Position numbers and translations under genes: made by a program | Shown: one piece after another, positions 2,763-32,000 of the stretch | How positions within the stretch are numbered: position 1 is the stretch's first letter | Layout: every line of letters begins with the position of its first letter | The notes under the pieces: model-generated | Told to the model about the DNA's origin: nothing | Database searches by the model: none | The model's input: the letters and a program-made list of their open reading frames with translations, nothing else | Assembly: GCF_019464535.1 (NCBI RefSeq) | Contig: NZ_CP080507.1 | Location: forward strand, 90,001-122,000 | DNA from: Horticoccus luteus | GTDB taxonomy: Bacteria > Verrucomicrobiota > Verrucomicrobiia > Opitutales > Opitutaceae | Direction of reading: 5' to 3' | DNA length: 32,000 nt

Positions 2763-2949
2763 ACTTTCTATAGCAAGGCAGGCGGCGTGCTGGGCGTGCC
2801 GAGGAGACAGGGGACGGTCGACGCTGTGTTCGATGTTTGCCGCGAACGCCGCGCACAGTGTTCGGCGGAGTGGCGTCGCGCTCCACGGGAGCCCTGCTGG
2901 ATGCCAATTTCCGCTTGCTGTCCGTTTTGAAAAAAATTTCGTTCCCGCC

Positions 2950-3579
2950 ATGCACCAACTTGCCGGATTTCGCGCTCTTCGCGCTGTTCTGTTAGGAGCA
3001 GTATTGATCGTCGGGAGCGTTTCGCCTCTGCGCGCGTTTCTTCCTCCCTCTTTTGATGCCAGCATAGCGGTCACCGGGGGTTCTGGATCGCCGCAGACGA
3101 TCACCGTGCCGCACACGTTCGCATTCACGTTGGCGGAGGATTTTACGGGCTATAGTCTATTTCTGGTCGATTTTACCGCATATTCTTCCGCCCCGGCGGG
3201 AATGATTGACGGCGCCATCACCCACGGCACAGGAATGACATTCCTGGCGTCGACGAGCGAGATCTCGTCCGGAGTGCAGGTATATGCCGCAGACTCCTAT
3301 TTTGGAAATCAGTCCTTTGCCGTCGAGTTCGCGTTCGACGATGCAGTTAACTTCGTTGCGGGCACCACCTTGATGGTGACGGCTGGTTCGGTTACGACGG
3401 ATGGAGCTTTCGCCACGAGCGCGCCGGACCGGACAGGCGCTTTTCATTTCTCGGTGACAGATGGCAACGGACACTACTTTACGCCGACGGCGGCCGCGAT
3501 TCCCGAGCCGTCAACCTACGCAATGTTGTTGGGCGCCGCGGCGTTGGGGTTGACGTTTTGGCGCCGGCGGCGGGCCTGA
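2950..3579 (+). CDS. PEP-CTERM sorting-domain protein (small secreted protein)
   Basis: The C-terminus IPEPSTYAMLLGAAALGLTFWRRRRA is the canonical PEP motif plus TM helix plus Arg cluster. ATG at 2950 gives the signal peptide MHQLAGFRALRAVLLGAVLIVGSVSPLRA. The region is visibly less GC-rich than its neighbours. Confidence 0.85.
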   Translation: MHQLAGFRALRAVLLGAVLIVGSVSPLRAFLPPSFDASIAVTGGSGSPQTITVPHTFAFTLAEDFTGYSLFLVDFTAYSSAPAGMIDGAITHGTGMTFLASTSEISSGVQVYAADSYFGNQSFAVEFAFDDAVNFVAGTTLMVTAGSVTTDGAFATSAPDRTGAFHFSVTDGNGHYFTPTAAAIPEPSTYAMLLGAAALGLTFWRRRRA

Positions 3580-3603
3580 GACCCGAATTTCCCGCGTTTG
3601 ATT

Positions 3604-3634
3604 AAGCCGAAGGTTTAGTCCTTCGGCTTTTTTG
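3604..3634 (+). terminator. Rho-independent terminator
   Basis: AAGCCGAAGG / CCTTCGGCTT stem followed by TTTTTG. Confidence 0.85.
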
Positions 3635-3767
3635 TGGAACGGGGAGATCATAGTGAACGGGTCACACTATGATTGCGACAGATTGACGTTCACCGGCGGC
3701 TGAAACCGCCTCGTTGACGACGTGCAGACCGCGAGGCCCGCGCTTCAACGGAGAACGTTCCGGGAAC

Positions 3768-8723: not shown

Positions 8724-8758
8724 AGCCGTGGGGCGGCGGGCGCGGACCCGGCCGAAGA

Positions 8759-8785
8759 ATGCGGGGTGAGGGCACCCCACCCACA
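8759..8785 (+). repeat. REP-like hairpin repeat, copy a (variant with CACCCCAC right arm)
   Basis: ATGCGGGGTGAGGGCACCCCACCCACA lies in the moaA-GH2 intergenic region. Confidence 0.8.
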
Positions 8786-9035: not shown

Positions 9036-10910
9036 ATGGCCACGCGTTCTCTTCCCCGCCCCGAATATCCACGTCCGCAGTTCGTGCGGCGCGACTGGCT
9101 CTGCCTCAATGGCACGTGGCAGTTTGAGATCGACCAGGGCGACAGTGGCCTCGATCGCGGGTTGCGCGAGGGGCCGCTGAAGAGCCGCATCGTGGTGCCG
9201 TTTTGCCCGGAGTCGAAGTTGTCGGGCGTGGAGAACACCGATTATCTCAACGCCGTCTGGTATCGTCGGGAGTTTACCGTGCCGCGCGGGTGGGCGGACC
9301 GGCGCGTGCTGCTACACTTTCAGGCGAGCGACTACGACACGTTTGTGTGGGTGAACGGGCACGAGGTGGGGCGGCACCGCGGCGGCATGACGCCGTTTGC
9401 ATGCGACATCACGGACGCGGCGCCGGCAGGCCGAAAGGCCATCGTCGTGGTGCGGGCGCGCGACAACGCACGCGAATCGATGCCCTCGGGCAAGCAGTCA
9501 TGGGTGCACGGCAACACGGGTTGCCACTACACGCGCACGACCGGAATCTGGCAGACGGTGTGGCTCGAGCCGGTGCCGCGGCGCGCGGCGTTGCAACGAC
9601 CCAAGATCACGCCGGATCTGGCGAACGGGCGCTTCGTGATCGAGCAACCGGTGAGCGGCGCGCAGGCGGGCCTCGTGTTGCGGGCGCGGTTGAGCGATGC
9701 GGCGGCCTTGGTGAGCGAGGCGACATGCCGCTGCGGCGAAGGATTTTATCCGCGGCTGGATCTTCCGGTGCCGGCGGCGCGGCGGCGGCTTTGGTCGCCG
9801 GAGGATCCGTTTCTCTACGACGTCGCGCTCGAGTTGGTGGACGAAGCGAGCGGCGAGATCGTCGATGCGGCGCAGAGCTACGCGGGGTTGCGCAGTGTGT
9901 CGATTGATGGCTACGCGGTGAAGCTCAACGGCCGCGCGGTGTTTCAACGGCTCGTGCTCGACCAAGGGTATTACCCGGACGGCATTCTCACGGCGCCGAG
10001 CGATCGGGCGCTGGTGCGCGACATCGAGCTCGCCCTCGCCGCGGGATTCAATGGCGCGCGGTTGCACCAGAAAGTGTTCGAGGAGCGGTTTCTTTATCAC
10101 GCGGACCGGCTCGGTTATCTGGTGTGGGGCGAGTTCAGCGACTGGGGACTGGGCGGCTCCGAGCCGGTGCGCGGGTGGCAGCAGCAGAGCGACGGCACGG
10201 TGGTGCGCGGCGGCAACCACAACGGCCAGGAGGCGCCGGTCTCGATCGTGGCGCAGTGGCTCGAGGCGGTGCAGCGCGATTTCAACCATCCGAGCCTCAT
10301 CGGGTGGTGTCCGCTCAACGAGACATCGCGCCGGCCCGATGAACGCATCACGCATCACGACGACATCATGCGCGGGCTCTTTCTCGCGACGAAGCTGGCC
10401 GACAACACGCGGCCGGTGCTCGATACCTCCGGCTACTCGCACACGGTCGCCGAAACCGACATCTACGATTCGCACGATTACGACCAAAACCCGGACACGT
10501 TTCGCGCCCGGCATGAGGCGTTGCTGCGCGACGAGCCCTATGTGGCGGACAACATCTGGACGAAATCGCCGGCGGCGTGGCCGCGGGGCACGCCGTATTT
10601 CGTGAGTGAGTTTGGCGGCATCTGGTGGAATCCGCGGGCGCGCCCGGGCGATCCCTCGTGGGGCTATGGCGACCGGCCGAAAACCCTGGAGGCGTTTTAT
10701 ACGCGCTTCGAGGGGTTGTGCGCGGCGCTGCTCGAGAACCCGCGGATGCTGGGCTATTGCTACACGCAGTTGACGGACGTTTATCAGGAGCAGAACGGCA
10801 TCTACTTTTTCGATCGCAAAAAGAAATACGACCTAGGGCGGGTGCGTGCCGCGCAACAACGGATCGCCGCGGTGGAGCGCGCGCCGGGCGGGGCGGTGAA
10901 AGGAAGATGA
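9036..10910 (+). CDS. Glycoside hydrolase family 2 protein (beta-galactosidase/glucuronidase-like), no signal peptide
   Basis: The GH2 sugar-binding domain signature NAVWYRREFTVP...LLHFQASDYDTFVWVNGHEVGRHRGGMTPFACDIT is present, followed by TGIWQTVWLEPVP and a TIM barrel with NHPSLIGWCPLNE. ATG at 9036 (MATRSLPRPEYPRPQF) is preferred over the upstream ORF extension. Confidence 0.85.
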   Translation: MATRSLPRPEYPRPQFVRRDWLCLNGTWQFEIDQGDSGLDRGLREGPLKSRIVVPFCPESKLSGVENTDYLNAVWYRREFTVPRGWADRRVLLHFQASDYDTFVWVNGHEVGRHRGGMTPFACDITDAAPAGRKAIVVVRARDNARESMPSGKQSWVHGNTGCHYTRTTGIWQTVWLEPVPRRAALQRPKITPDLANGRFVIEQPVSGAQAGLVLRARLSDAAALVSEATCRCGEGFYPRLDLPVPAARRRLWSPEDPFLYDVALELVDEASGEIVDAAQSYAGLRSVSIDGYAVKLNGRAVFQRLVLDQGYYPDGILTAPSDRALVRDIELALAAGFNGARLHQKVFEERFLYHADRLGYLVWGEFSDWGLGGSEPVRGWQQQSDGTVVRGGNHNGQEAPVSIVAQWLEAVQRDFNHPSLIGWCPLNETSRRPDERITHHDDIMRGLFLATKLADNTRPVLDTSGYSHTVAETDIYDSHDYDQNPDTFRARHEALLRDEPYVADNIWTKSPAAWPRGTPYFVSEFGGIWWNPRARPGDPSWGYGDRPKTLEAFYTRFEGLCAALLENPRMLGYCYTQLTDVYQEQNGIYFFDRKKKYDLGRVRAAQQRIAAVERAPGGAVKGR

Positions 10911-10936
10911 TGCGGGGTGAGGACACCCCGCCGACA
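10909..10936 (+). repeat. REP-like hairpin repeat, copy b (overlaps the GH2 stop codon)
   Basis: GATGCGGGGTGAGGACACCCCGCCGACA. The TGA stop of the GH2 CDS is 10908-10910. The repeat is followed by the extension AAAAGAGCAAGGCGGGCG. Confidence 0.85.
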
Positions 10937-11004
10937 AAAGAGCAAGGCGGGCGTGTCGGTTGCGCGGGAGACTGATAAGTGCGCCCAAGAGGTGCCGGGA
11001 AAAG

Positions 11005-11034
11005 TGTGGGCGGGGTGCCCTCACCCCGCGGATC
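11005..11034 (-). repeat. REP-like hairpin repeat, copy c (the only inverted copy)
   Basis: The top strand reads TGTGGGCGGGGTGCCCTCACCCCGCGGATC, the reverse complement of the family consensus. It ends 4 nt from the stop of the RAYT-like gene. Confidence 0.85.
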
Positions 11035-11037
11035 GGG

Positions 11038-11496
11038 CTAACGGAAAGCGAGCCGATGAACCTCTCCCTGCCACGGCCAGGTATCGGAATGAGGCACGAG
11101 TGCGGCACGCACGGGATTCGCGCGAACGTAGTCCCATTTGGCGGTGTAGGATTCGGCCGAGCGCAGGAGGTGGTCGAAGGTGTCCGGCTGCCAAAGCGGC
11201 GGGGGAAAGCCCAAGTGAACGGCAAGCTGACGCGACGAAACGGATTTCCACATTTTCAGCCACGCTTCTCGGAGACGCGCGCCGTGAGTGGCCGGCTGGG
11301 CAAAAAGGTGGACGTGATCGGGCATGAGCATGAATCGTCCGACAAACCAGCCGTCACGTTCGGCTGAGGTCGTCCAAAGATTGAGCAGGACGCCGAAGGC
11401 TTCGGCGTTGGCGAGCAGCGGACGACGGTTGGCCGTGCAAGCGGTGAAAAAGTAAAGAGGCGGATGCGCGAGCGGGGTGACGTGGGGCAGGCGCAT
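11038..11496 (-). CDS. rayT: REP-associated tyrosine transposase-like protein (IS200/IS605 Y1 HUH family)
   Basis: PLYFFTACTANRRPLL forms the N-terminal strand. The HUH motif is MPDHVHLF and the catalytic Tyr motif is WDYVRANPVRAAL. Size of about 152 aa fits the family. I start at ATG 11496, because the ORF-track start at 11535 lies inside REP copy d. Confidence 0.8.
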   Translation of the reverse strand: MRLPHVTPLAHPPLYFFTACTANRRPLLANAEAFGVLLNLWTTSAERDGWFVGRFMLMPDHVHLFAQPATHGARLREAWLKMWKSVSSRQLAVHLGFPPPLWQPDTFDHLLRSAESYTAKWDYVRANPVRAALVPHSDTWPWQGEVHRLAFR

Positions 11497-11517
11497 GACT
11501 GAGAGCGGATGGGCAAG

Positions 11518-11545
11518 GATGCGGGGTGAGGGCACCCCGCCTACA
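11518..11545 (+). repeat. REP-like hairpin repeat, copy d
   Basis: GATGCGGGGTGAGGGCACCCCGCCTACA lies 22 nt upstream of the RAYT ATG. It is followed by AAAAAAGGAGGGCGGGCG. Confidence 0.85.
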
Positions 11546-11583
11546 AAAAAGGAGGGCGGGCGTTAGGTTTGCGCAGCGAGCAG

Positions 11584-11618
11584 CGGTGCACCCCGCCGAC
11601 AAAAGAGCAAGGCGGGCG
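11584..11618 (+). repeat. Half REP (right arm only) plus extension, copy e
   Basis: GCGGTGCACCCCGCCGACAAAAGAGCAAGGCGGGCG. The left arm is degenerate. The right arm plus extension is identical to copy b. Confidence 0.65.
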
Positions 11619-11632
11619 CAGGCGGGATGTCG

Positions 11633-12829
11633 TTAGGGTTGCGCGGCGAACCAGCGTTGGGCGGCGGGGGTGGGGGCAGGGATTTTTTTCGGCAGGCCGC
11701 CGTGGCGGAGCGAGTCCGTGGCGGCGCAGCCGGCGGCGACGGATTCGCGCGCGGCGAGCGGTGAGGTGTCCGTCGCGCCGCCGTCGCGGGCGAAGCGGAC
11801 GAATTCATCGATGAGTTTCGGATCGGCGCCGCCATGCGTGCCGCGCGCGACGGGGATGCGGTGCGTGGCGTCGGCGCGCGCGGGGTAGCCTTGGTGGCGT
11901 TGCGTCCACACGCGGACTTCGGTGCCCCGTTCGCCGTTGCCGAAATTTTCCAGGCGGCCGGCGGTGCCGATCACCGTGTAGTTGCGCCAGTAATCCGGCG
12001 TGAACATGCACTGCGCGTAGGTGGCGAACACGCCGTTTTCGAGGCGCATCTGCATGGTGCTGATGTCTTCGACGTCGATGTGCGCGTTGAGCCGGCGGTT
12101 TTTGGTCGGGGGGAAACGCGTGTAGTCGATGTCGGCCTGCGTGAGGCGGCGCGGGCCGCGAGTCGCGGGGAGGCGGCCCGGGAGATCCGCGGCGAGGGTG
12201 AGGCCACCGAGGGCGTTGACGAGCCGGCTGTAGCCGCCGCAGAGCCAGTGGATGATGTCGATATCGTGCGCGGCTTTTTGGAGGAGGAGGCCGTTGACGT
12301 AAAGGCGCTCGGCGTGCCAGTCGCGGTAGTAGAAGTCGATGCCGTGGCCGACGAAGTGGCGCACCCAGCAGGCTTTCACTTCGCCGATCGCGCCGTCGTC
12401 GATGAGCGCCTTCATTTTGCGCACGAAGGGCATGTGCCGCATGTTGTGGCCGACGTAGAGGCGGGCGCGGTGTTGTTGCGCGGCGCGGAGGATGCGGTCG
12501 CAGCCGGCGAGGGTGAGCGCCATGGGCTTTTCGAGAAAGACAGCGAGCCCGCGGGCGAGCGCGGCGAGGGCGTGCTCTTCGTGCAGGAAGTCGGGCGTGG
12601 CTATGATGACGGCGTCGAGGTCGCGGCCGAGAAGGTCGCGGTAATCGGAGGTCGTGAAAATATCCGCGCCGAAGTCGGTGCGGTTTTGCGCGAGCGCGGC
12701 GGGGTTGGAATCGCAGCAGGCGACGACGCGCGCGCCGCGACCGGGGCGATGCGCGAGGCGGCCGAGATGGCCGCCGCGGCCGCCGGAGCCGATCTGGCCA
12801 ATGAGAAGGTCGTCGGAAGTTTTCTTCAT
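11633..12829 (-). CDS. Gfo/Idh/MocA family oxidoreductase
   Basis: ATG at 12829 gives MKKTSDDLLIGQIGSGGRGG (Rossmann GxGxxG). ACCDSNP...DAVIIATPDFLHEEHALAALARGLAVFLEKPMA is the family signature (EKP). Confidence 0.88.
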   Translation of the reverse strand: MKKTSDDLLIGQIGSGGRGGHLGRLAHRPGRGARVVACCDSNPAALAQNRTDFGADIFTTSDYRDLLGRDLDAVIIATPDFLHEEHALAALARGLAVFLEKPMALTLAGCDRILRAAQQHRARLYVGHNMRHMPFVRKMKALIDDGAIGEVKACWVRHFVGHGIDFYYRDWHAERLYVNGLLLQKAAHDIDIIHWLCGGYSRLVNALGGLTLAADLPGRLPATRGPRRLTQADIDYTRFPPTKNRRLNAHIDVEDISTMQMRLENGVFATYAQCMFTPDYWRNYTVIGTAGRLENFGNGERGTEVRVWTQRHQGYPARADATHRIPVARGTHGGADPKLIDEFVRFARDGGATDTSPLAARESVAAGCAATDSLRHGGLPKKIPAPTPAAQRWFAAQP

Positions 12830-13868: not shown

Positions 13869-13896
13869 GATGCGGGGTGAGGTCACCCCGCCCACA
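13869..13896 (+). repeat. REP-like hairpin repeat, copy f
   Basis: GATGCGGGGTGAGGTCACCCCGCCCACA lies in the divergent AraC / dioxygenase intergenic region. Confidence 0.85.
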
Positions 13897-26101: not shown

Positions 26102-26983
26102 GCGGGCGCGGAGGGGTTCGCCGCGGGTGGTGAAGGTGCGCTGGCGGGCTTCGTAGTCGGCACGGCCGGCGGGGGTTTCGATGGGAATGGGTGCGTAGCC
26201 GAGGGCGCGGAGATCGTAGGGACTCGCGCGCATGTCGACTTCACGGATTTCGGCGGCGAGCGCGAAGCAGTCGGCGATCAACTCGGACGGCGTGAACGGC
26301 GCGAGTTTGAAGGCCCACTTGTAGAGATCCATGTTGGCGTGGAGACAGCCGCGTTGTTCGTGTTGCGAAACGGTTTCGCGCGCGGGTTGCAGGCGGTTGA
26401 GCGGGCGGGCGGGCGGAGTGAAGAAGCGAAACGCGTCGAAGTGCGTGCAGCACAGCGCGCTCGACTCGACGATGCGCGCGAGCTCGGCGGGCGGGAAGCG
26501 CAGGGGATGATTGTTGTGCCGGATCTCGTCCGGCGTCTGGCGGTAAACCATCGCCCATTCGTGCAGGCCGTAGCAGGCGAAGAACGCCGGACGGGATTGC
26601 ATCGCGGTGAGCAAATCGCGGAGCCACGCGACGAAGGTGCGGCGATGGGCGGGGAGCGCGGCGAGGTTGAGGGCGATGCCGTCGGCGGTCGCGTGATAAC
26701 CGGGCCAGCGCAGAAATTCACGGGCGCCGTCGCCGGCGAGGATCACATCGGGGCCGGGATGCCAGCGGCGGAGCCACGCGGGGCGGAACGCGTAGTAGTG
26801 AAAGAGGAAATCGAGGACGGGATGTTTCTCGCCGCGGGCGGCGCGGGCGTGATGCGGATCGGTCCACGCACGGACGCGGGTTTCGTGGGCGGATTGGCGG
26901 GCGCGCCAGGCGGATTCGGGAAGGAGGATGGGCGCGGAGGTGGCGCGGGGTGGAACGATGCGGGGTGAGGGCACCCCGCCCAC
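26063..26983 (-). CDS. Conserved hypothetical protein (family commonly auto-annotated '3-methyladenine DNA glycosylase')
   Basis: Strongly conserved-looking blocks are HPVLDFLFHYYAFRPAWLRRWHPG, GLHEWAMVYRQ, THFDAFRFFTPPARPLN, CLHANMDLYKWA and DMRASPYDL. The start is uncertain. There is no ATG between REP copy g and the conserved core. The candidate GTG starts at 26983 and 26974 lie inside the REP, and the ORF-track ATG is at 27124. Confidence 0.7.
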   Translation of the reverse strand: MGGVPSPRIVPPRATSAPILLPESAWRARQSAHETRVRAWTDPHHARAARGEKHPVLDFLFHYYAFRPAWLRRWHPGPDVILAGDGAREFLRWPGYHATADGIALNLAALPAHRRTFVAWLRDLLTAMQSRPAFFACYGLHEWAMVYRQTPDEIRHNNHPLRFPPAELARIVESSALCCTHFDAFRFFTPPARPLNRLQPARETVSQHEQRGCLHANMDLYKWAFKLAPFTPSELIADCFALAAEIREVDMRASPYDLRALGYAPIPIETPAGRADYEARQRTFTTRGEPLRARLLLVCDRLLARV

Positions 26984-26984
26984 A
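26957..26984 (+). repeat. REP-like hairpin repeat, copy g
   Basis: GATGCGGGGTGAGGGCACCCCGCCCACA overlaps the 5' end of the CDS above. Confidence 0.85.
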
Positions 26985-27144
26985 GGAGAGGGCGGAGGGG
27001 CAGAGGACGCGGATGAGGCGGAGAGGAAATTGGACGTGGGCGTTGGCGTGCCGAAGAGAGAACGAGAAAGAGAAAGTGGAACGAGAAAGATTTTTTCGAG
27101 GGCGGCGGTGGGTGGGGCGCGCACTGGAAGCGCGCGGGGCGCGA

Positions 27145-27172
27145 GATGCGGGGTGAGGGCACCCCGCCCACA
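27145..27172 (+). repeat. REP-like hairpin repeat, copy h (first of a tandem trio)
   Basis: GATGCGGGGTGAGGGCACCCCGCCCACA. Confidence 0.85.
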
Positions 27173-27189
27173 AGGAGGACGGATGCGGC

Positions 27190-27217
27190 GATGCGGGGTG
27201 AGGGCACCCCGCCTACA
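27190..27217 (+). repeat. REP-like hairpin repeat, copy i
   Basis: GATGCGGGGTGAGGGCACCCCGCCTACA starts 45 nt after the start of copy h. Confidence 0.85.
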
Positions 27218-27226
27218 AGGAGGAGA

Positions 27227-27261
27227 GATGCGGAAAGCGGCGGGAGGGCACCCCGCCTACA
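27227..27261 (+). repeat. Degenerate REP, copy j (left arm disrupted)
   Basis: GATGCGGAAAGCGGCGGGAGGGCACCCCGCCTACA keeps the 5' GATGCGG and the right arm plus the CTACA tail. Confidence 0.6.
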
Positions 27262-27286
27262 CGGAAGGGGGGAGGAGCGGCGCGGG

Positions 27287-29221
27287 TTATTTGGCCCAGT
27301 CGACGGGGACCGCAGGGGGGAAGGTGGAGGAGAGTTCGCGCGGTTGGCCGTCGGTGAGGCACTGGTGCACGGTTTCGATGATTTCGACGACGTGCGCGGC
27401 ATGGGCGCCTTGCGCGCGGTGCGGGCGGTTTTCGCGGATGGCGTGGGCGAGCTCGATCACGCCGCGGCCGAACTCGGTGCCGGGCGTGGGCACGCGGGCG
27501 GGAAGCACGGGCGTGCGGCGGTCGCCGTCTTCGAGGCGGCTGAACCAGATGGGCGAATCGAAGGCGGCCCAGGAATCGAGCGCGAGCATGCCTTGGTCGC
27601 CGTGGACTTCGAGGCCGTGCTGGCGGGTGTGGCCGCTGACGTAGAAGTTGGCGGTGACGCGGGCGCGGAGGCCGTGGGCAAATTCGATGATCGCGCAACT
27701 CCAGTCGGGTGTGGTGAAGCTGTAGGGCTGGCCGTCTTTGGTGACGCGGTGGGGATGGATGAGGCCGCCGGCGGCGGTGACGCGTTGCGCGGGGCCGAAC
27801 CAGGCGCTGAGGAGCGTGAGCGGATACACGGCGACGTCGAACATCGGGCCGACGTCGTAGAAGGGTTTCGGATTCGGATGCCAGGTTTCGATGCGGCCCC
27901 AGTTGACCTCGGCGTAAGCGATGCGCGGCGGGCCGATGAGGCCGTCGCGGACGAGTTTCCACGCGGTCTGCTGGGCTTCGCCGAGCCAGGTGATGGGCGC
28001 GGCGCTGAGGCGAAGATTTTTGGCGGTGGCGAGGTCGACAAGGCGTTGGGCGTCGGCGTAGCGCGTGGCGATGGGTTTCTCGCTGTGCACGTGTTTGCCG
28101 GCTTCGAGGCAACGGGTAATGACTTCGACGTGGGCGTGGTGGATGGTGAGGTTGACGACGACGTCGACCGCGGGATCGGCGAGGACTTCGTCGAGCGTGG
28201 CGTAAACGCGGCCGGCGGAATATTGGTCAACGAAGGCCTGCGCGCGCGCGGGATCGAGGTCCTGGGCGCCGATGATTTTCACCTCGGGGTAGGATGCGAG
28301 GTCGCGGGCGTAGGCGCCGGAGATGTTGCCACAACCGACGATGGCCACGCGCACGGGTTCGCCGGCCGGCGCGGCGGACTGGCGGCCGGCGCGGAGCCAT
28401 TCCTGCACGAGCGGCAGGGAGGCCTGGAGGTCGGCGCGCGGGTCGGCGTCTTCGGGTTCGTGTTCGAGGGTGATCGCGCCGCGGTAGCCGAGCGAAGGCA
28501 GTAGTTTCACGAAGCGCTCGACGGGGACGATGCCGGCGCCGAGGCGGCAGGTTTCGTGGCCGAGGTCGGCGAAGGGCAGACCGGTCTTCGCGGGGCGCGG
28601 CGCCTTCACGTCCTTGAGGTGAATGTGTTTCAGGCGCGGCGCGAGGGCGCGGAGGGCTTCGACGGCGTCGAAGCGCTGCGTGCCAAACCAGCCGGTGTCG
28701 AGCGTGACGCCAATGACATCGGCATCGCCGGCGCCGAGGCGGGCGAGGAGTTCGGCGGGGTTTTTCTCGGGATGATTTTCGAGGCCGAAGACGAGGCCGA
28801 ATTCGCGGAGGGTCGCGACGAGGCCGGCGCGATCTTTTCCGAGCAGCGCGGTGGCTCCGCCGAGGACGGGAATGTGCAGATCCTGGCAAAGCCGGCAGGC
28901 GGCGCGGAATTCCGGGAGCGTGTGGCCGAAACTGCCGGCGTAGGACGTGACGCGGAGCTGGCGTTGGGCGAGGAGGCGGCGGGCGATGGCGATGTGTTCG
29001 GGCGTGGCCCACAGGAAATGCAGATGAGCGGTCCAGAGATCGATCGCGGTGAAGCCGAGCGCGGTGACTTCGCCGAGCATTTCATCGAAGCGGGCGGCGA
29101 AGGTATCGAGGGGGGAGAACCACGCCTGCGCGGCGGCATCGCCCTGGCCCCAGCCGTTGGACATGCGATAGCCGAGTTGGCGGGCGACGAAGTTGGCGGT
29201 GGTGAAGGAGATTTGGTTCAT
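27287..29221 (-). CDS. Fusion protein: sugar phosphate isomerase/epimerase (xylose-isomerase-like TIM barrel) + Gfo/Idh/MocA oxidoreductase
   Basis: The N-terminal half has TIM-barrel motifs (GFTAIDLW, FGLENHPE, LKHIHLKDV, ITLEHE). The C-terminal half starts VRVAIVGCGNISGAY and carries CLEAGKHVHSEKPIA, the EKP signature. Confidence 0.85.
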   Translation of the reverse strand: MNQISFTTANFVARQLGYRMSNGWGQGDAAAQAWFSPLDTFAARFDEMLGEVTALGFTAIDLWTAHLHFLWATPEHIAIARRLLAQRQLRVTSYAGSFGHTLPEFRAACRLCQDLHIPVLGGATALLGKDRAGLVATLREFGLVFGLENHPEKNPAELLARLGAGDADVIGVTLDTGWFGTQRFDAVEALRALAPRLKHIHLKDVKAPRPAKTGLPFADLGHETCRLGAGIVPVERFVKLLPSLGYRGAITLEHEPEDADPRADLQASLPLVQEWLRAGRQSAAPAGEPVRVAIVGCGNISGAYARDLASYPEVKIIGAQDLDPARAQAFVDQYSAGRVYATLDEVLADPAVDVVVNLTIHHAHVEVITRCLEAGKHVHSEKPIATRYADAQRLVDLATAKNLRLSAAPITWLGEAQQTAWKLVRDGLIGPPRIAYAEVNWGRIETWHPNPKPFYDVGPMFDVAVYPLTLLSAWFGPAQRVTAAGGLIHPHRVTKDGQPYSFTTPDWSCAIIEFAHGLRARVTANFYVSGHTRQHGLEVHGDQGMLALDSWAAFDSPIWFSRLEDGDRRTPVLPARVPTPGTEFGRGVIELAHAIRENRPHRAQGAHAAHVVEIIETVHQCLTDGQPRELSSTFPPAVPVDWAK

Positions 29222-29291
29222 GGGGAGGAAAGCGGAGCGAGTAGCGGAGTGGTAAATATGGAGTAGGGCGGGTGCGTGGGGCGGGCGGCCA

Positions 29292-29319
29292 GATGCGGGG
29301 TGAGGGCACCCCGCCTACA
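29292..29319 (+). repeat. REP-like hairpin repeat, copy k
   Basis: GATGCGGGGTGAGGGCACCCCGCCTACA lies between the beta-mannosidase stop (29335) and the fusion-gene start (29221). Confidence 0.85.
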
Positions 29320-29334
29320 GGGGAATGGCAGTTA

Positions 29335-31893
29335 TCAGGCGGCGGAGTCGGCGAGGGTGCGGGTTTGGAGGGCGCGCAGGAGAGCGGGGCGGGTGACTCG
29401 ACGGTGGAAGTGCACGCGGACTTGCTTCGGTTCGTCGGGATAGAGATCGAAGAAGTTGTCGCTGGCGAAATGCGGAAGGCCCGGAAATTCGAACGCGAAG
29501 CGGTGTTGGAAAACGGGCGAGCGCACCGTGAGCAGCGCCTCGGTGGGCGAGACCAGGCGCAGGCTCACGCGAGGCCGGGCGCGGGGCAGCGCGACGAAGC
29601 GGGGGACGGTGAGGAAGATCGTTTCCTCGCTCACGCAGACGGCGTCGAGGTCGAGCGCGATGCGGAGGTAAACGTTGTCGCGACCGTAGCGCGCGAGCAG
29701 CGCGGCGAGATCGAGGGTGTGCTGGCGGATGCTTTCGCCGTAGCGGAGCGCGACGCGTTTTTTTCCCGCGAGGAGGATGCGTCCATCGACGTGAAACAAA
29801 TCCCAGCGCAAGGTGCCGCGGGCGGCGGCGGGGGCATCGTAAACGGTGTAGAGGTGCACTTCGCGCACGGAGGAGCGGCGGTAGTTGCCGATGACGGTGC
29901 TCTCTTCGCCGGGGACGTGGGCGCTGACGAGCGCGGGGGCGAAGTAGCGGCGCGTGGCGTAGTGGAGCGCGCGCCAGCGGCCGTTGAATTCGATCGAGCT
30001 GGCGGAGGTGACGGGCCAGCAGTCGTTGAGCTGCCAGTAGAGCGCGCCCATGCAGCGCGGCATCTGGCGGCGGTAATGTTCGACGGCGACCTGCATGGAG
30101 AAGGCCTCGTTCAACTCGGAGAGGTAGCAGAGCGCGTCCTGATTTTTGGGGTAACGATAGAGGCGGGAAACGTAGTCGAGGACGATCTGGTTGCCGGCGG
30201 GATGTTTCTGATGGTTCTCCATCACGGGGCCGAACACGTTGTTCTGGCCGGGCGGGCAAAACGTGGCCTGGGCCTCGGGCGAGGCGAAGGCTTGCATGCC
30301 GAATTCGGAGACGAAGCGGAACTGCCACTTCTCGTATTCCTTCACGGAACGGCCGGCGTGCCACACGGCCCAGAAATGGGTGTCGCCGCTGATCTCGCCG
30401 AGCTTGGTGTCGGTGTAGTCGTTGCTGCGGCCGTCGCCGCGATAGGGTGACGTGGGCCAGTAGGGCGTGACGCCGTCGTGCGCGGCGACGGCGGCGGGGA
30501 GCGCGTCGTGGAAGAGCGCGTGGTAGTTGCGGCGCAGATCGGGGGAGGCCTGAAGGGCGTCCCAGTTGAGCGTTTCGATTTCGTTGTTGCCGCACCAGAG
30601 GGCGAGGCAGGCGCGGTGGCGGAGGCGGCGGATTTGGGCGTCGGCCTCGGCGCGGACGCTGGCGACAAAGGCGGCGTCGCCGGGATAGAGGACGCAGGCG
30701 AACATGAAATCCTGCCACACGAGCAGGCCGAGTTCGTCGCAGAGATCGTAGAAGGATTCGTCTTCGTAAATGCCGCCGCCCCAGACGCGGAGCATGTTGA
30801 GGTTGGCGGCGGCGGCGGCGCGGGTGTCGCGCGCGTAGTCGTCGCGCGTGAGGCCGGCGACGAGGATGTGCGCGGGCACCCAGTTGGCGCCCTTGGCGAA
30901 GAGCGGGCGGCCGTTGACGACGAAGCGAAACGATTCGCCCCATTGGTCGGCGCTGCGGTCGAGCGCGAGGGTGCGCAAGCCGATGCGTTGGGACCATTGG
31001 CCAAAGGCGCGGCCGTCAGCCTCGAAGGCGGCGACGTGGACGGTGTAGAGCGGTTGCGCGCCGTGGCCGTTGGGCCACCAGAGTTGCGGCGCGTCGAGGG
31101 CGAGCGTGAGCGTTTCGGCGGGGCCGCGGAGCTCGGCGACCGTTGTGCCGTCGAGGGCGATGGTAACGTGATAGGTGACTTTCGGATCCGGGCGGGCGAG
31201 TTCGGGGGTGAGCGTGAGGGTGACGGCGGTGGCCGCGGCGGGAGCGGAGGCGCGGCGGCGGGGGGCGGACGGGCGGGCGTCGGAGGTGGGAGCGTGGTGC
31301 TGTGCGACGCGGACGGACTCGAGGCGGTTGGTGGTCCAGGCTTCGAGGCGGAGGTCGCGCCAGATGCCGGCGGTGAGGAGGCGAGGCGCCCAATCCCAGC
31401 CGAATTGGGACGGTTGCTTGCGGAGGACGGAGCCGCGGCCGACGGCGTCGTTGAACTCTTTCGGCTGATGTTCGGGGCGCGTCGCGCGGACAGCGGCGGC
31501 GGCGCTGGCGAAGACGATGCGCAGTTCGTTGCGGCCACGGCGGAGGTGGGCGCGGACGGATACGCGCAGCGGGACGAACATGTTGTCGGACGTGGCGACG
31601 CGGCGGCCGTTGAGATAGACGGTGGCGAGGGTGTCGAGGCCGTCGCACACGAGATCGATTTCCGTCTCGGCGAGCAGGGGGGCGGGCGCGGTGAAGGTGG
31701 TGCGATATTCCCAGTCGCGCTCCTCAATCCATTGGAGGGAGAGCTCGTTGGTGCCGAAAAAGGGATCGGGAATGAGGCCGGCGCGCTGGAGGTCGCGGTG
31801 AACGCAGCCGGGGACGGCGGCGGAGTGCCAGCGGGAGCGTTGGGTGGCGTCGCGGAATTGCCAGGCCGCGGAAGCAAGGGGCAGGGTGGTCAT
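29335..31893 (-). CDS. Beta-mannosidase (GH2), no signal peptide
   Basis: ATG at 31893 gives MTTLPLASAAWQFRD...W.SAAVPGCVHRDLQRAGLIPDPFFGTNELSLQWIEERDWEYRTTF, the classical beta-mannosidase N-terminus. ALWCGNNE (acid/base) and FVSEFGMQAF (nucleophile region) are also present. Confidence 0.9.
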   Translation of the reverse strand: MTTLPLASAAWQFRDATQRSRWHSAAVPGCVHRDLQRAGLIPDPFFGTNELSLQWIEERDWEYRTTFTAPAPLLAETEIDLVCDGLDTLATVYLNGRRVATSDNMFVPLRVSVRAHLRRGRNELRIVFASAAAAVRATRPEHQPKEFNDAVGRGSVLRKQPSQFGWDWAPRLLTAGIWRDLRLEAWTTNRLESVRVAQHHAPTSDARPSAPRRRASAPAAATAVTLTLTPELARPDPKVTYHVTIALDGTTVAELRGPAETLTLALDAPQLWWPNGHGAQPLYTVHVAAFEADGRAFGQWSQRIGLRTLALDRSADQWGESFRFVVNGRPLFAKGANWVPAHILVAGLTRDDYARDTRAAAAANLNMLRVWGGGIYEDESFYDLCDELGLLVWQDFMFACVLYPGDAAFVASVRAEADAQIRRLRHRACLALWCGNNEIETLNWDALQASPDLRRNYHALFHDALPAAVAAHDGVTPYWPTSPYRGDGRSNDYTDTKLGEISGDTHFWAVWHAGRSVKEYEKWQFRFVSEFGMQAFASPEAQATFCPPGQNNVFGPVMENHQKHPAGNQIVLDYVSRLYRYPKNQDALCYLSELNEAFSMQVAVEHYRRQMPRCMGALYWQLNDCWPVTSASSIEFNGRWRALHYATRRYFAPALVSAHVPGEESTVIGNYRRSSVREVHLYTVYDAPAAARGTLRWDLFHVDGRILLAGKKRVALRYGESIRQHTLDLAALLARYGRDNVYLRIALDLDAVCVSEETIFLTVPRFVALPRARPRVSLRLVSPTEALLTVRSPVFQHRFAFEFPGLPHFASDNFFDLYPDEPKQVRVHFHRRVTRPALLRALQTRTLADSAA

Positions 31894-32000
31894 GCGGGGG
31901 AGACGAAACCAAGTGTTCAAACACGTGAGGTGCAACCGGCCCAGCCGAAAGGAGTGAAAATGCGAGGGAGCGGGGTGAGACGGAGAGCGGGAAGGAGCGC

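Follow-up and report, generated by a model that had tools for sequence, protein, structure and literature searches.

The minus-strand gene at 11038..11496 in a 32,000-nucleotide stretch of the Horticoccus luteus chromosome, here called the window, encodes a 152-residue protein and is closely flanked by copies of a short hairpin repeat that recurs through the same DNA. We conclude that gene and repeats very probably form a REP-RAYT unit, or 'REPtron', of an Opitutaceae (Verrucomicrobiota) chromosome. The protein would then be a Y1 HUH endonuclease of the TnpA-REP/RAYT family (RAYT, REP-associated tyrosine transposase), and the repeat its cognate repetitive extragenic palindrome (REP), a hairpin with a GTAG-type tetranucleotide, or tag, at its 5' foot. 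This identity had been proposed in a preliminary description of the DNA. It is now carried by a curated family model and the closest solved structure, by the conservation of the residues for catalysis and tag contact, by the enclosure of the gene between REPs whose tags point outward and the recurrence of this layout at all the homologous loci inspected, by the intergenic dispersal of the hairpin, and by the co-variation of hairpin and RAYT lineage.

The locus adds one more example to a known kind. In 2013, GTAG-tagged REPs and REPtrons were described from Opitutus terrae, which has both GTAG and GTGG forms, and from other non-proteobacterial phyla (PMC3733652); Quentin et al. in 2018 found TnpA-REP subclasses in Cyanobacteria, Bacteroidetes and other phyla (PMC6006769), and relatives of the present protein are already annotated as RayT. 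The earlier remark that REP/RAYT systems are poorly described outside Proteobacteria was thus overstated. The value added is modest: a REPIN-forming RAYT clade (REPIN, REP doublet forming hairpin) across Opitutaceae, a series of compensated hairpins, and a possible bias of REP orientation with the replication strand. A well-resolved REP-RAYT pair from Verrucomicrobiota also joins a set of studied examples that is almost wholly gammaproteobacterial. Beyond these points the locus represents expected biology.

The RAYT protein

The gene starts with an ATG at 11496 and ends with a TAG stop codon at 11038, and its product contains the YFFT, DHVHLF and YVRANPV motifs in which the preliminary description had recognised the hallmarks of Y1 transposases. 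It scores 83.8 bits, over profile positions 11-145 of 146, against NCBIfam NF047646 (REP_Tyr_transpos; cut-off 80), which is NCBI's curated equivalog model for REP-associated tyrosine transposases. The protein remains below the cut-offs of the IS200 equivalog NF033573 (18.4 versus 55) and of Pfam Y1_Tnp, PF01797 (19.2 versus 23), so that the family placement expected of a profile search is given by the RAYT model but not by Y1_Tnp.

Among solved structures a sequence search finds one clear relative only, E. coli TnpA-REP bound to REP (PDB 4er8), which is the top match at E = 3.6e-7 with residues 15-143 aligned. The fold leads to the same protein. An AlphaFold model built on 38 homologues has a pLDDT (predicted local distance difference test) score of 94.5 and, when compared with the PDB, retrieves 4er8_A first (E = 1.7e-8, TM score 0.68), the match extending over the full length with 153 aligned columns. 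The ISDra2, IS608 and IS200 transposases rank below it with about 120 aligned columns, and the match to 4er8_A takes in a C-terminal part that IS200 TnpA does not have.

The HUH motif is H61-V-H63, Y123 is the catalytic tyrosine and N127 a metal ligand; these align with the HUH motif (HmH), Y115 and N119 (dYiyiNP) of the E. coli enzyme. The tag-contact set, W102, Q103, D108, H109 and R112, likewise corresponds to E. coli W94, Q95, E100, H101 and R104. According to Quentin et al. these E. coli residues serve catalysis, metal binding and GTAG recognition, and a change from Glu to Asp at the E100 position is typical of their subclasses 2.5 and 2.7 (PMC6006769). In the 38 homologues, which share 47-68% identity with the RAYT, H61, H63, Y123, N127, W102, Q103, D108 and R112 are all invariant. 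With catalytic and tag-contact residues preserved to this extent, the enzyme looks, from its sequence, intact and under purifying selection. The assignment of the 152-residue protein as a RAYT is therefore supported by the curated model, by its best solved-structure relative in both sequence and fold, and by the conserved catalytic and GTAG-contact residues.

The REP hairpin

On its tagged strand the REP reads (T)GT[A/G]G-GCGGGGTG-CCCT-CACCCCGC, an 8-bp G+C stem closed by a 4-nt loop, and a lone hairpin folds at -10.9 kcal/mol (z = -4.3). The bottom-strand formula proposed beforehand, GT[A/G/C]G followed by the hairpin and ATC, stands as regards tag and hairpin, the C variant being the GTCG of the copy designated REP b; ATC usually comes next in the window, but REP c has GGATC instead. 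A search for the 20-mer GCGGGGTGAGGGCACCCCGC with up to three mismatches finds 11 matches in the window, on 10 sites, where 0.01 is expected in shuffled sequence. When genes are placed by the periodicity of GC content at third codon positions (GC3) together with Pfam domains, all 10 sites are intergenic, in a window of which about 13% is non-coding, and the scattering of the hairpin noted earlier is confirmed. Most of these REPs follow a stop codon within 40 nt. The hairpins have no T-run after them, and a scan of 10700-11800 for intrinsic terminators was empty; the REPs are therefore not intrinsic terminators. A sigma-70 promoter scan of the same interval also found none, and an Rfam scan of the window matched no family.

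The tag is a regular feature of the repeat well beyond this genome. In 171 related loci (968 kb), perfect hairpins have GT[AG]G at the foot in 230 of 245 cases (GTGG in 161, GTAG in 69), which bears out the likeness, drawn in the preliminary description, to the GTAG-type tetranucleotide 5' of a short hairpin in enterobacterial REPs. About 60% of the REP copies in these loci are paired, as 74 inverted doublets with tags outside, 4 with tags inside and 5 head-to-tail pairs, and the spacers of the tags-outside doublets peak at 12-13 and 27-28 nt. The Opitutaceae doublets thereby match the REPIN architecture known from Pseudomonas (PMC3116915). An alignment of 11 hairpin variants has changes on both sides at 6 of the 8 stem pairs; since the variants were picked as perfect hairpins, their 100% pairing is given by construction, and the informative cases are the compensated variants beside diverged RAYTs.

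A scan for the exact 24-mer REP matched 40 stretches of GTDB representative genomes, from Lacunisphaera, Nibricoccus, Opitutus and other Opitutaceae, together with at least 120 stretches of metagenomes; none of the Opitutaceae metagenome-assembled genomes (MAGs) matched by it has the REP density of the window. OZ245769.1 is a closed Opitutaceae genome with this REP. Many copies are identical over 24-28 nt both within and between genomes, and one REP core is identical across Opitutaceae genera while the RAYT has diverged to 56-68% identity. A core common to several genera, taken with the compensated stem variants, provides a natural series for the study of how RAYTs read hairpin and tag. The exact 24-nt REP is also present in two MAGs labelled Kiritimatiellia and Gammaproteobacteria (L017, JAOZSS010000035.1, and L036, CAWERO010000004.1), where mis-binning or transfer could account for it.

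Organisation of the locus

Four copies of the hairpin, REPs b, c and d and the half-copy e, are found around the gene at the sites where they had been described. REP d (11518..11545, core 11521-11540, minus strand; TGTAG-GCGGGGTG-CCCT-CACCCCGC-ATC) ends 21 nt before the ATG of the RAYT gene. REP c (11005..11032, core 11010-11029, plus strand; TGTGG-GCGGGGTG-CCCT-CACCCCGC-GGATC), which on the coding strand of the RAYT takes the inverted form hairpin-CCAC, is located 8 nt past the stop codon. The two are thus the 5' and 3' members of an inverted pair that encloses the RAYT gene with tags outward. REP b (10909..10936, core 10912-10931, minus strand), with its GTCG tag and a TCCT loop, abuts the stop codon of a GH2 glycosidase gene. 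Together with REP c it makes a tags-inside inverted pair with a 68-nt spacer, which can fold as one long hairpin (-36.9 kcal/mol, z = -4.9). These are the only inverted REP pairs in the window. REP e (about 11575-11618, minus strand) is a degenerate half-copy without the loop and part of one arm, in which the REP hairpin is not formed.

A 30-mer, CACCCCGCCGACAAAAGAGCAAGGCGGGCG, is identical at 10924-10953 and 11589-11618, and a third copy with 4 mismatches is present at 11533. The preliminary description had seen the identical copies as bracketing a cassette. Their identity holds, but they mark no cassette ends; they are part of a unit of about 57 nt that is present three times on the RAYT strand, at 11650-11575, 11574-11518 and 10965-10909, and that consists of GCGCAAnC(n)TAAC/GACA, then CGCCCGCC..TTTTGT(A/C)G, then a REP. 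In unit U1 (11575..11650, minus strand) the first segment is the real 3' end of the neighbouring GFO/IDH/MocA oxidoreductase gene (stop codon 11633-11635), whose true end (..AQP*) is GCGCAACCCTAA; the unit also includes degenerate REP e and the second 30-mer copy. Units U2 and U3 have echoes of this gene end: U2 (11518..11574, minus strand) combines the echo GCGCAAACCTAA with REP d and is 84% identical to U3 (10909..10965, minus strand), which comprises REP b, CGCCCGCC..TTTTGTCG, the echo GCGCAACCGACA and the first 30-mer copy. The RAYT gene and REP c lie between U2 and U3.

The 30-mer was accordingly ruled out as an element boundary. Its place inside a unit with an echo of the GFO/IDH/MocA 3' end implies that it reflects local duplication, and the simplest reading is that a segment of gene end plus REP was duplicated locally, with the RAYT gene and REP c between two of the units. 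Tandem amplification of BIMEs (bacterial interspersed mosaic elements) in E. coli gives a similar picture (PMC3333891). The unit is found only in the window and in three loci that are 98.8% identical to it (L001-L003).

The position of REP d also bears on how the gene is annotated. A mechanical list of open reading frames (ORFs) starts the RAYT frame at a GTG at 11535, 13 codons upstream of the ATG, and reads through REP d; these extra codons are almost certainly non-coding, the product of a start-codon miscall, and lie outside the protein. The ORF calls for P0032, P0061, P0104 and P0008 begin within the upstream REP as well, with peptides such as MGGVPSPR and MRGEGTPP. The REP-encoded N-termini of database RAYTs are a systematic start-codon miscall, and annotators should be aware that the upstream REP is routinely absorbed in over-long RAYT ORF calls.

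Related loci

The 225 homologues of the RAYT are from Verrucomicrobiota, with Opitutaceae as the main source, and JGI or NCBI already give many of them the label RayT. Neither the 152-residue protein nor the 165-residue version has an exact database entry. At L044, L045, L048, L049, L023 and L160 the RAYT is preceded on its coding strand, at a distance of 13-25 nt, by a GTRG-hairpin and followed, about 10 nt past the stop codon, by an inverted hairpin-CYAC, so that the homologous gene sits inside a tags-outside doublet, like the d/c pair here. The stems at L045 are the variants GCGGGACG/CGTCCCGC and GCGGGGCG/CGCCCCGC. Variant cognate hairpins also accompany RAYTs of about 50% identity at three further loci: GGAG + ATGGGGTG-CCCT-CACCCCAT at L171, GGGG + ACGGGGCG-CCCT-CGCCCCGT at L172 and GTAG + CCGGCATC-GGT-GATGCCGG at L173. 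The hairpin sequence co-varies with the RAYT lineage.

The RAYT of L171 (52% identity) has head-to-tail arrays of the GGAG-hairpin on both sides (2850-3015 and 3545-3725), in the same orientation, with a 35-36-nt period and four to five copies per array; one compensated stem pair (ATGGGGTG versus ATGGCGTG) distinguishes the upstream from the downstream array.

Only three RAYT genes occur among 161 stretches selected by their REPs, those of the window, L023 and L160. The position of the gene is conserved within sublineages, not across the family. L044 and L048 share the order hexapeptide-repeat protein, class I tRNA synthetase, RAYT, acyltransferase, EPSP synthase, and P0115 has an identical context at all 4 of the places shown, out of 17 contigs on record, whereas the neighbouring genes differ in each of the window, L045, L049, L171, L172 and L173.

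Closely related pairs of loci give a view of shorter times. L045 and L046 encode an identical RAYT protein (P0036) and differ just upstream of the gene by an 88-nt indel equal to one REP doublet, which implies recent REP turnover. The indel (L045 5780-5890 versus L046 2904-2925) has a 26-nt direct repeat, GCGGGACGGGGTCGTCCCGCCTACAG, at its borders. The arrangement in L001-L003 is that of the window, from which they depart by single-nucleotide polymorphisms only; one of these falls in the REP b stem.

Comparison with known systems

The protein resembles E. coli TnpA-REP (RayT/YafM; PDB 4er8; PMC3333891, PMC3479197), a member of Quentin subclass 2.2 and Bertels Group 2, in the full-length Y1 HUH fold, the HUH/Tyr/Asn set and the W-Q...H..R tag contacts; both genes have their own flanking REPs, with GT[A/G]G at the 5' foot of the hairpin, and no tnpB. 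They differ in other points. Sequence identity is only about 20%, E100 is replaced by D108, DHVH stands for the E. coli DHLH and YVRANP for YIHYNP, and the two hosts belong to different phyla. In the E. coli REP the stem is long and contains a bulge that binding requires, whereas here it is a perfect 8 bp with a 4-nt loop.

Bertels Group 3, equivalent to Quentin subclass 2.5, comprises the short-REP RAYTs and REPINs of Pseudomonas and Xanthomonads (PMC3116915, PMC5581495, PMC6006769), and resembles the present system in several respects. Its proteins have a median length of 151 residues against 152 here; WQ, the Asp at the E100 position and Y..ANP are shared; foot and stem together measure 12 nt, within the reported 10-13; and the Opitutaceae loci show REPIN-like, tags-outside inverted doublets with fixed spacers. 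It differs in having DH[LF]H for DHVH and YI[VI]ANP for YVR-ANP, and the REPs of the window are mostly singlets or head-to-tail arrays and not doublets. The motif [ND]HVH is the signature of subclass 2.7 (Table 1, PMC6006769), and on motif comparison only, the DHVH and YVR of the RAYT fit subclass 2.7 better than 2.5.

In O. terrae PB90-1, also of the Opitutaceae, the GTAG REPs (Di Nocera et al. 2013, PMC3733652) are short tagged hairpins with GTGG predominant in one family. They occur as dimers and in groups, and REPtrons are reported for most GTAG-bearing species (PMC3733652). Peptides from the intragenic O. terrae REPs GTAG-17, -18 and -19 match no frame of the window hairpin, and in the scan of GTDB representatives O. 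terrae is absent from the genomes that have the exact 24-mer. The IS200/IS605 elements IS608 and ISDra2 share a homologous Y1 HUH fold, subterminal hairpins with a 5' guide tetranucleotide and a single-stranded DNA (ssDNA) substrate. The RAYT is set apart from them by its failure against IS200 models, by the lack of tnpB, by a gene that is not seen in multiple copies, and by hairpins that are dispersed alone.

Mechanism and alternative explanations

How might the enzyme act on its repeats? E. coli TnpA-REP is a monomer that binds the hairpin and its 5' GTAG on ssDNA; it is auto-inhibited and Mn2+-dependent, cuts CT dinucleotides located either at the inverted REP or within the linker, with formation of a 5'-phosphotyrosine, and can rejoin strands (PMC3333891, PMC3479197). 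By analogy, the RAYT of the window would bind the REP hairpin and its 5' GTRG on ssDNA, the putative substrate being TGT(A/G)GGCGGGGTGCCCTCACCCCGC or, in a longer form, 5'-TTGT(A/G)GGCGGGGTGCCCTCACCCCGCATC-3'. Cleavage might then fall close to this site, at the inverted REP or the linker or beside them, with Y123 forming the 5'-phosphotyrosine and H61, H63 and N127 holding the metal. Rejoining of strands could lead to the excision, copying or tandem amplification of REP singlets and doublets at a low rate, while the RAYT gene itself would not be multiplied. If the analogy holds, the details of recognition would have to be different, since the stem mismatch on which the E. coli enzyme depends is missing from the perfect stem found here; on this point the system is like the short-REP subclass 2.5 (Bertels Group 3).

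That discrepancy is one of several points that weigh against a REP-RAYT unit of the E. coli type. The REPs of the window are also mostly singlets in one orientation, or head-to-tail arrays, and not the inverted doublets supposed to be mobile; a comparison of the window with L001-L003 shows no REP gained or lost; and the RAYT occurs in differing genomic contexts across genomes, so that over long times the gene is not strictly immobile. Some of this would suit a relic system, in which the RAYT is kept, perhaps for another host function or in a tightly auto-inhibited state, and the REPs, no longer moved, are a fossil population, preserved or tolerated for the service of the hairpins to the host as protectors of mRNA 3' ends or as protein-binding sites. 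The lack of REP polymorphism relative to L001-L003, at about 1.2% divergence, speaks for such a state, as do the auto-inhibition of E. coli TnpA-REP (PMC3479197), a GC3 for the RAYT gene of 0.70 against 0.78-0.86 in its neighbours, which is compatible with low expression, and the siting of most window REPs directly downstream of stop codons, in agreement with the reported preference for 3' untranslated regions (PMC3733652). We nevertheless consider a relic unlikely. The catalytic and tag-contact residues are invariant in a clade whose divergence reaches down to about 50% identity, the identity of REP copies over 24-28 nt argues for continuing copying or strong constraint, and the doublet indel between L045 and L046 and the triplication around the RAYT gene represent recent rearrangement. 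The missing T-runs, moreover, exclude a role for the hairpins as intrinsic terminators.

Two other explanations are far less probable. An autonomous IS200/IS605-type insertion sequence, with the hairpins as its subterminal ends and the 30-mers as its boundaries or as a target duplication, could draw on the Y1/HUH fold common to the RAYT and the TnpA proteins of IS608 and ISDra2, on the inverted hairpins around the gene and on the identical 30-mer on both sides of it. We rejected this candidate. The protein fails the IS200 and Pfam Y1_Tnp models and passes that for RAYTs, no tnpB is found among the ORFs of the window or the neighbours of the RAYT gene, and the available DNA yielded no second copy of the gene. 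The flanking hairpin also occurs away from the gene, dispersed over 10 window sites and hundreds of loci, and the 30-mer belongs to a triplicated unit with an echo of the neighbouring gene's end; to our knowledge, IS200/IS605 elements make no target duplications. With ordinary metabolic genes as neighbours and no tnpB, the surroundings exclude an insertion sequence, and the full element with tnpB that the preliminary description had named as the competing explanation is not what the locus holds. An equally slight chance attaches to mere coincidence, whereby the hairpins were spread by recombination, slippage or another enzyme and are dense beside the RAYT by accident. REPs are indeed dense throughout the window, and head-to-tail arrays such as those at 27141-27286 and in L171 could stem from slippage, but the enclosing arrangement recurs at nine more RAYT loci (L023, L044, L045, L048, L049, L160, L171, L172 and L173) with different neighbouring genes, and the hairpin sequence changes along with the RAYT lineage.

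REP orientation and GC skew

In nine of the 10 window REPs the hairpin-CYAC form is on the plus strand, which is the G-rich strand. Among singleton REPs in 63 other loci orientation goes with the local skew (Mann-Whitney p = 0.0025): the two agree in 25 of 33 cases where |skew| is at least 0.06 and in 8 of 20 where it is below 0.03; the relation to the flanking transcript is weaker (26:18). In these loci, for same-direction contexts, gene strand is an almost complete confounder of skew, with 20 of 23 flanking genes on the C-rich strand, and only the window decouples the two.

Along the window the GC skew of the plus strand is very strong, at +0.10 to +0.30 per 2 kb for most blocks, with +0.007 and +0.076 in two of the first three; the weaker part is at 2-6 kb. 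It is positive on stretches of plus-strand and of minus-strand genes alike, and slightly higher with minus-strand genes; the coding strand therefore seems to be relatively C-rich in this genome.

The orientation bias is a lead and not a result, but it hints at strand-specific mobilisation linked to replication. Activity on ssDNA at the replication fork has been shown for IS608 and ISDra2; we know of no demonstration that REPs are gained or lost there, and the REP literature compared here reports no such orientation bias for REPs. We put forward tentatively, and with more doubt than confidence, that singleton REPs are oriented by replication strand, with the CYAC form on the lagging-strand template and the GTRG-hairpin form that the RAYT would recognise on the opposite strand, and that the REP core has been kept across Opitutaceae genera as a long-lived, vertically inherited population. 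Were the bias linked to replication, it would be in-genome evidence of RAYT-driven gain or loss of REPs on ssDNA at the fork, and its polarity would tell whether insertion or removal is strand-biased. The idea of REPIN populations that are long-lived and inherited vertically would also be carried beyond Gammaproteobacteria.

Other features of the window

The genes around the RAYT encode a MoaA-like radical-SAM protein, the GH2 glycosidase, the GFO/IDH/MocA oxidoreductase, an AraC regulator and a PhyH dioxygenase. Dispersed REPs, all on the minus strand, are found between the MoaA-like and GH2 genes (8758..8785, GTGG tag), between the divergent AraC-type and PhyH genes (13869..13896), in an intergenic position at 26957..26984, and 20 nt beyond the stop codon of the gene at 29335-31998 (29292..29319). 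A head-to-tail array of three minus-strand REPs at 27141..27286, with copies at 27148 and 27193, a degenerate one at 27237 and a period of 44-45 nt, lies directly past the stop codon of the gene at 27287-29260, between two minus-strand genes. Such an array is unlike the inverted doublets that prevail in related genomes.

Near the RAYT locus, the region encoding the C-terminal part of the GH2 protein has a 12-nt in-frame indel at 10897 relative to L001 and L002. Elsewhere in the window several direct repeats of 70-72% identity connect 417-996 with 2107-2683 at a spacing of 1687 nt; they fall in two adjacent plus-strand coding regions and are probably tandem paralogous genes or domains.

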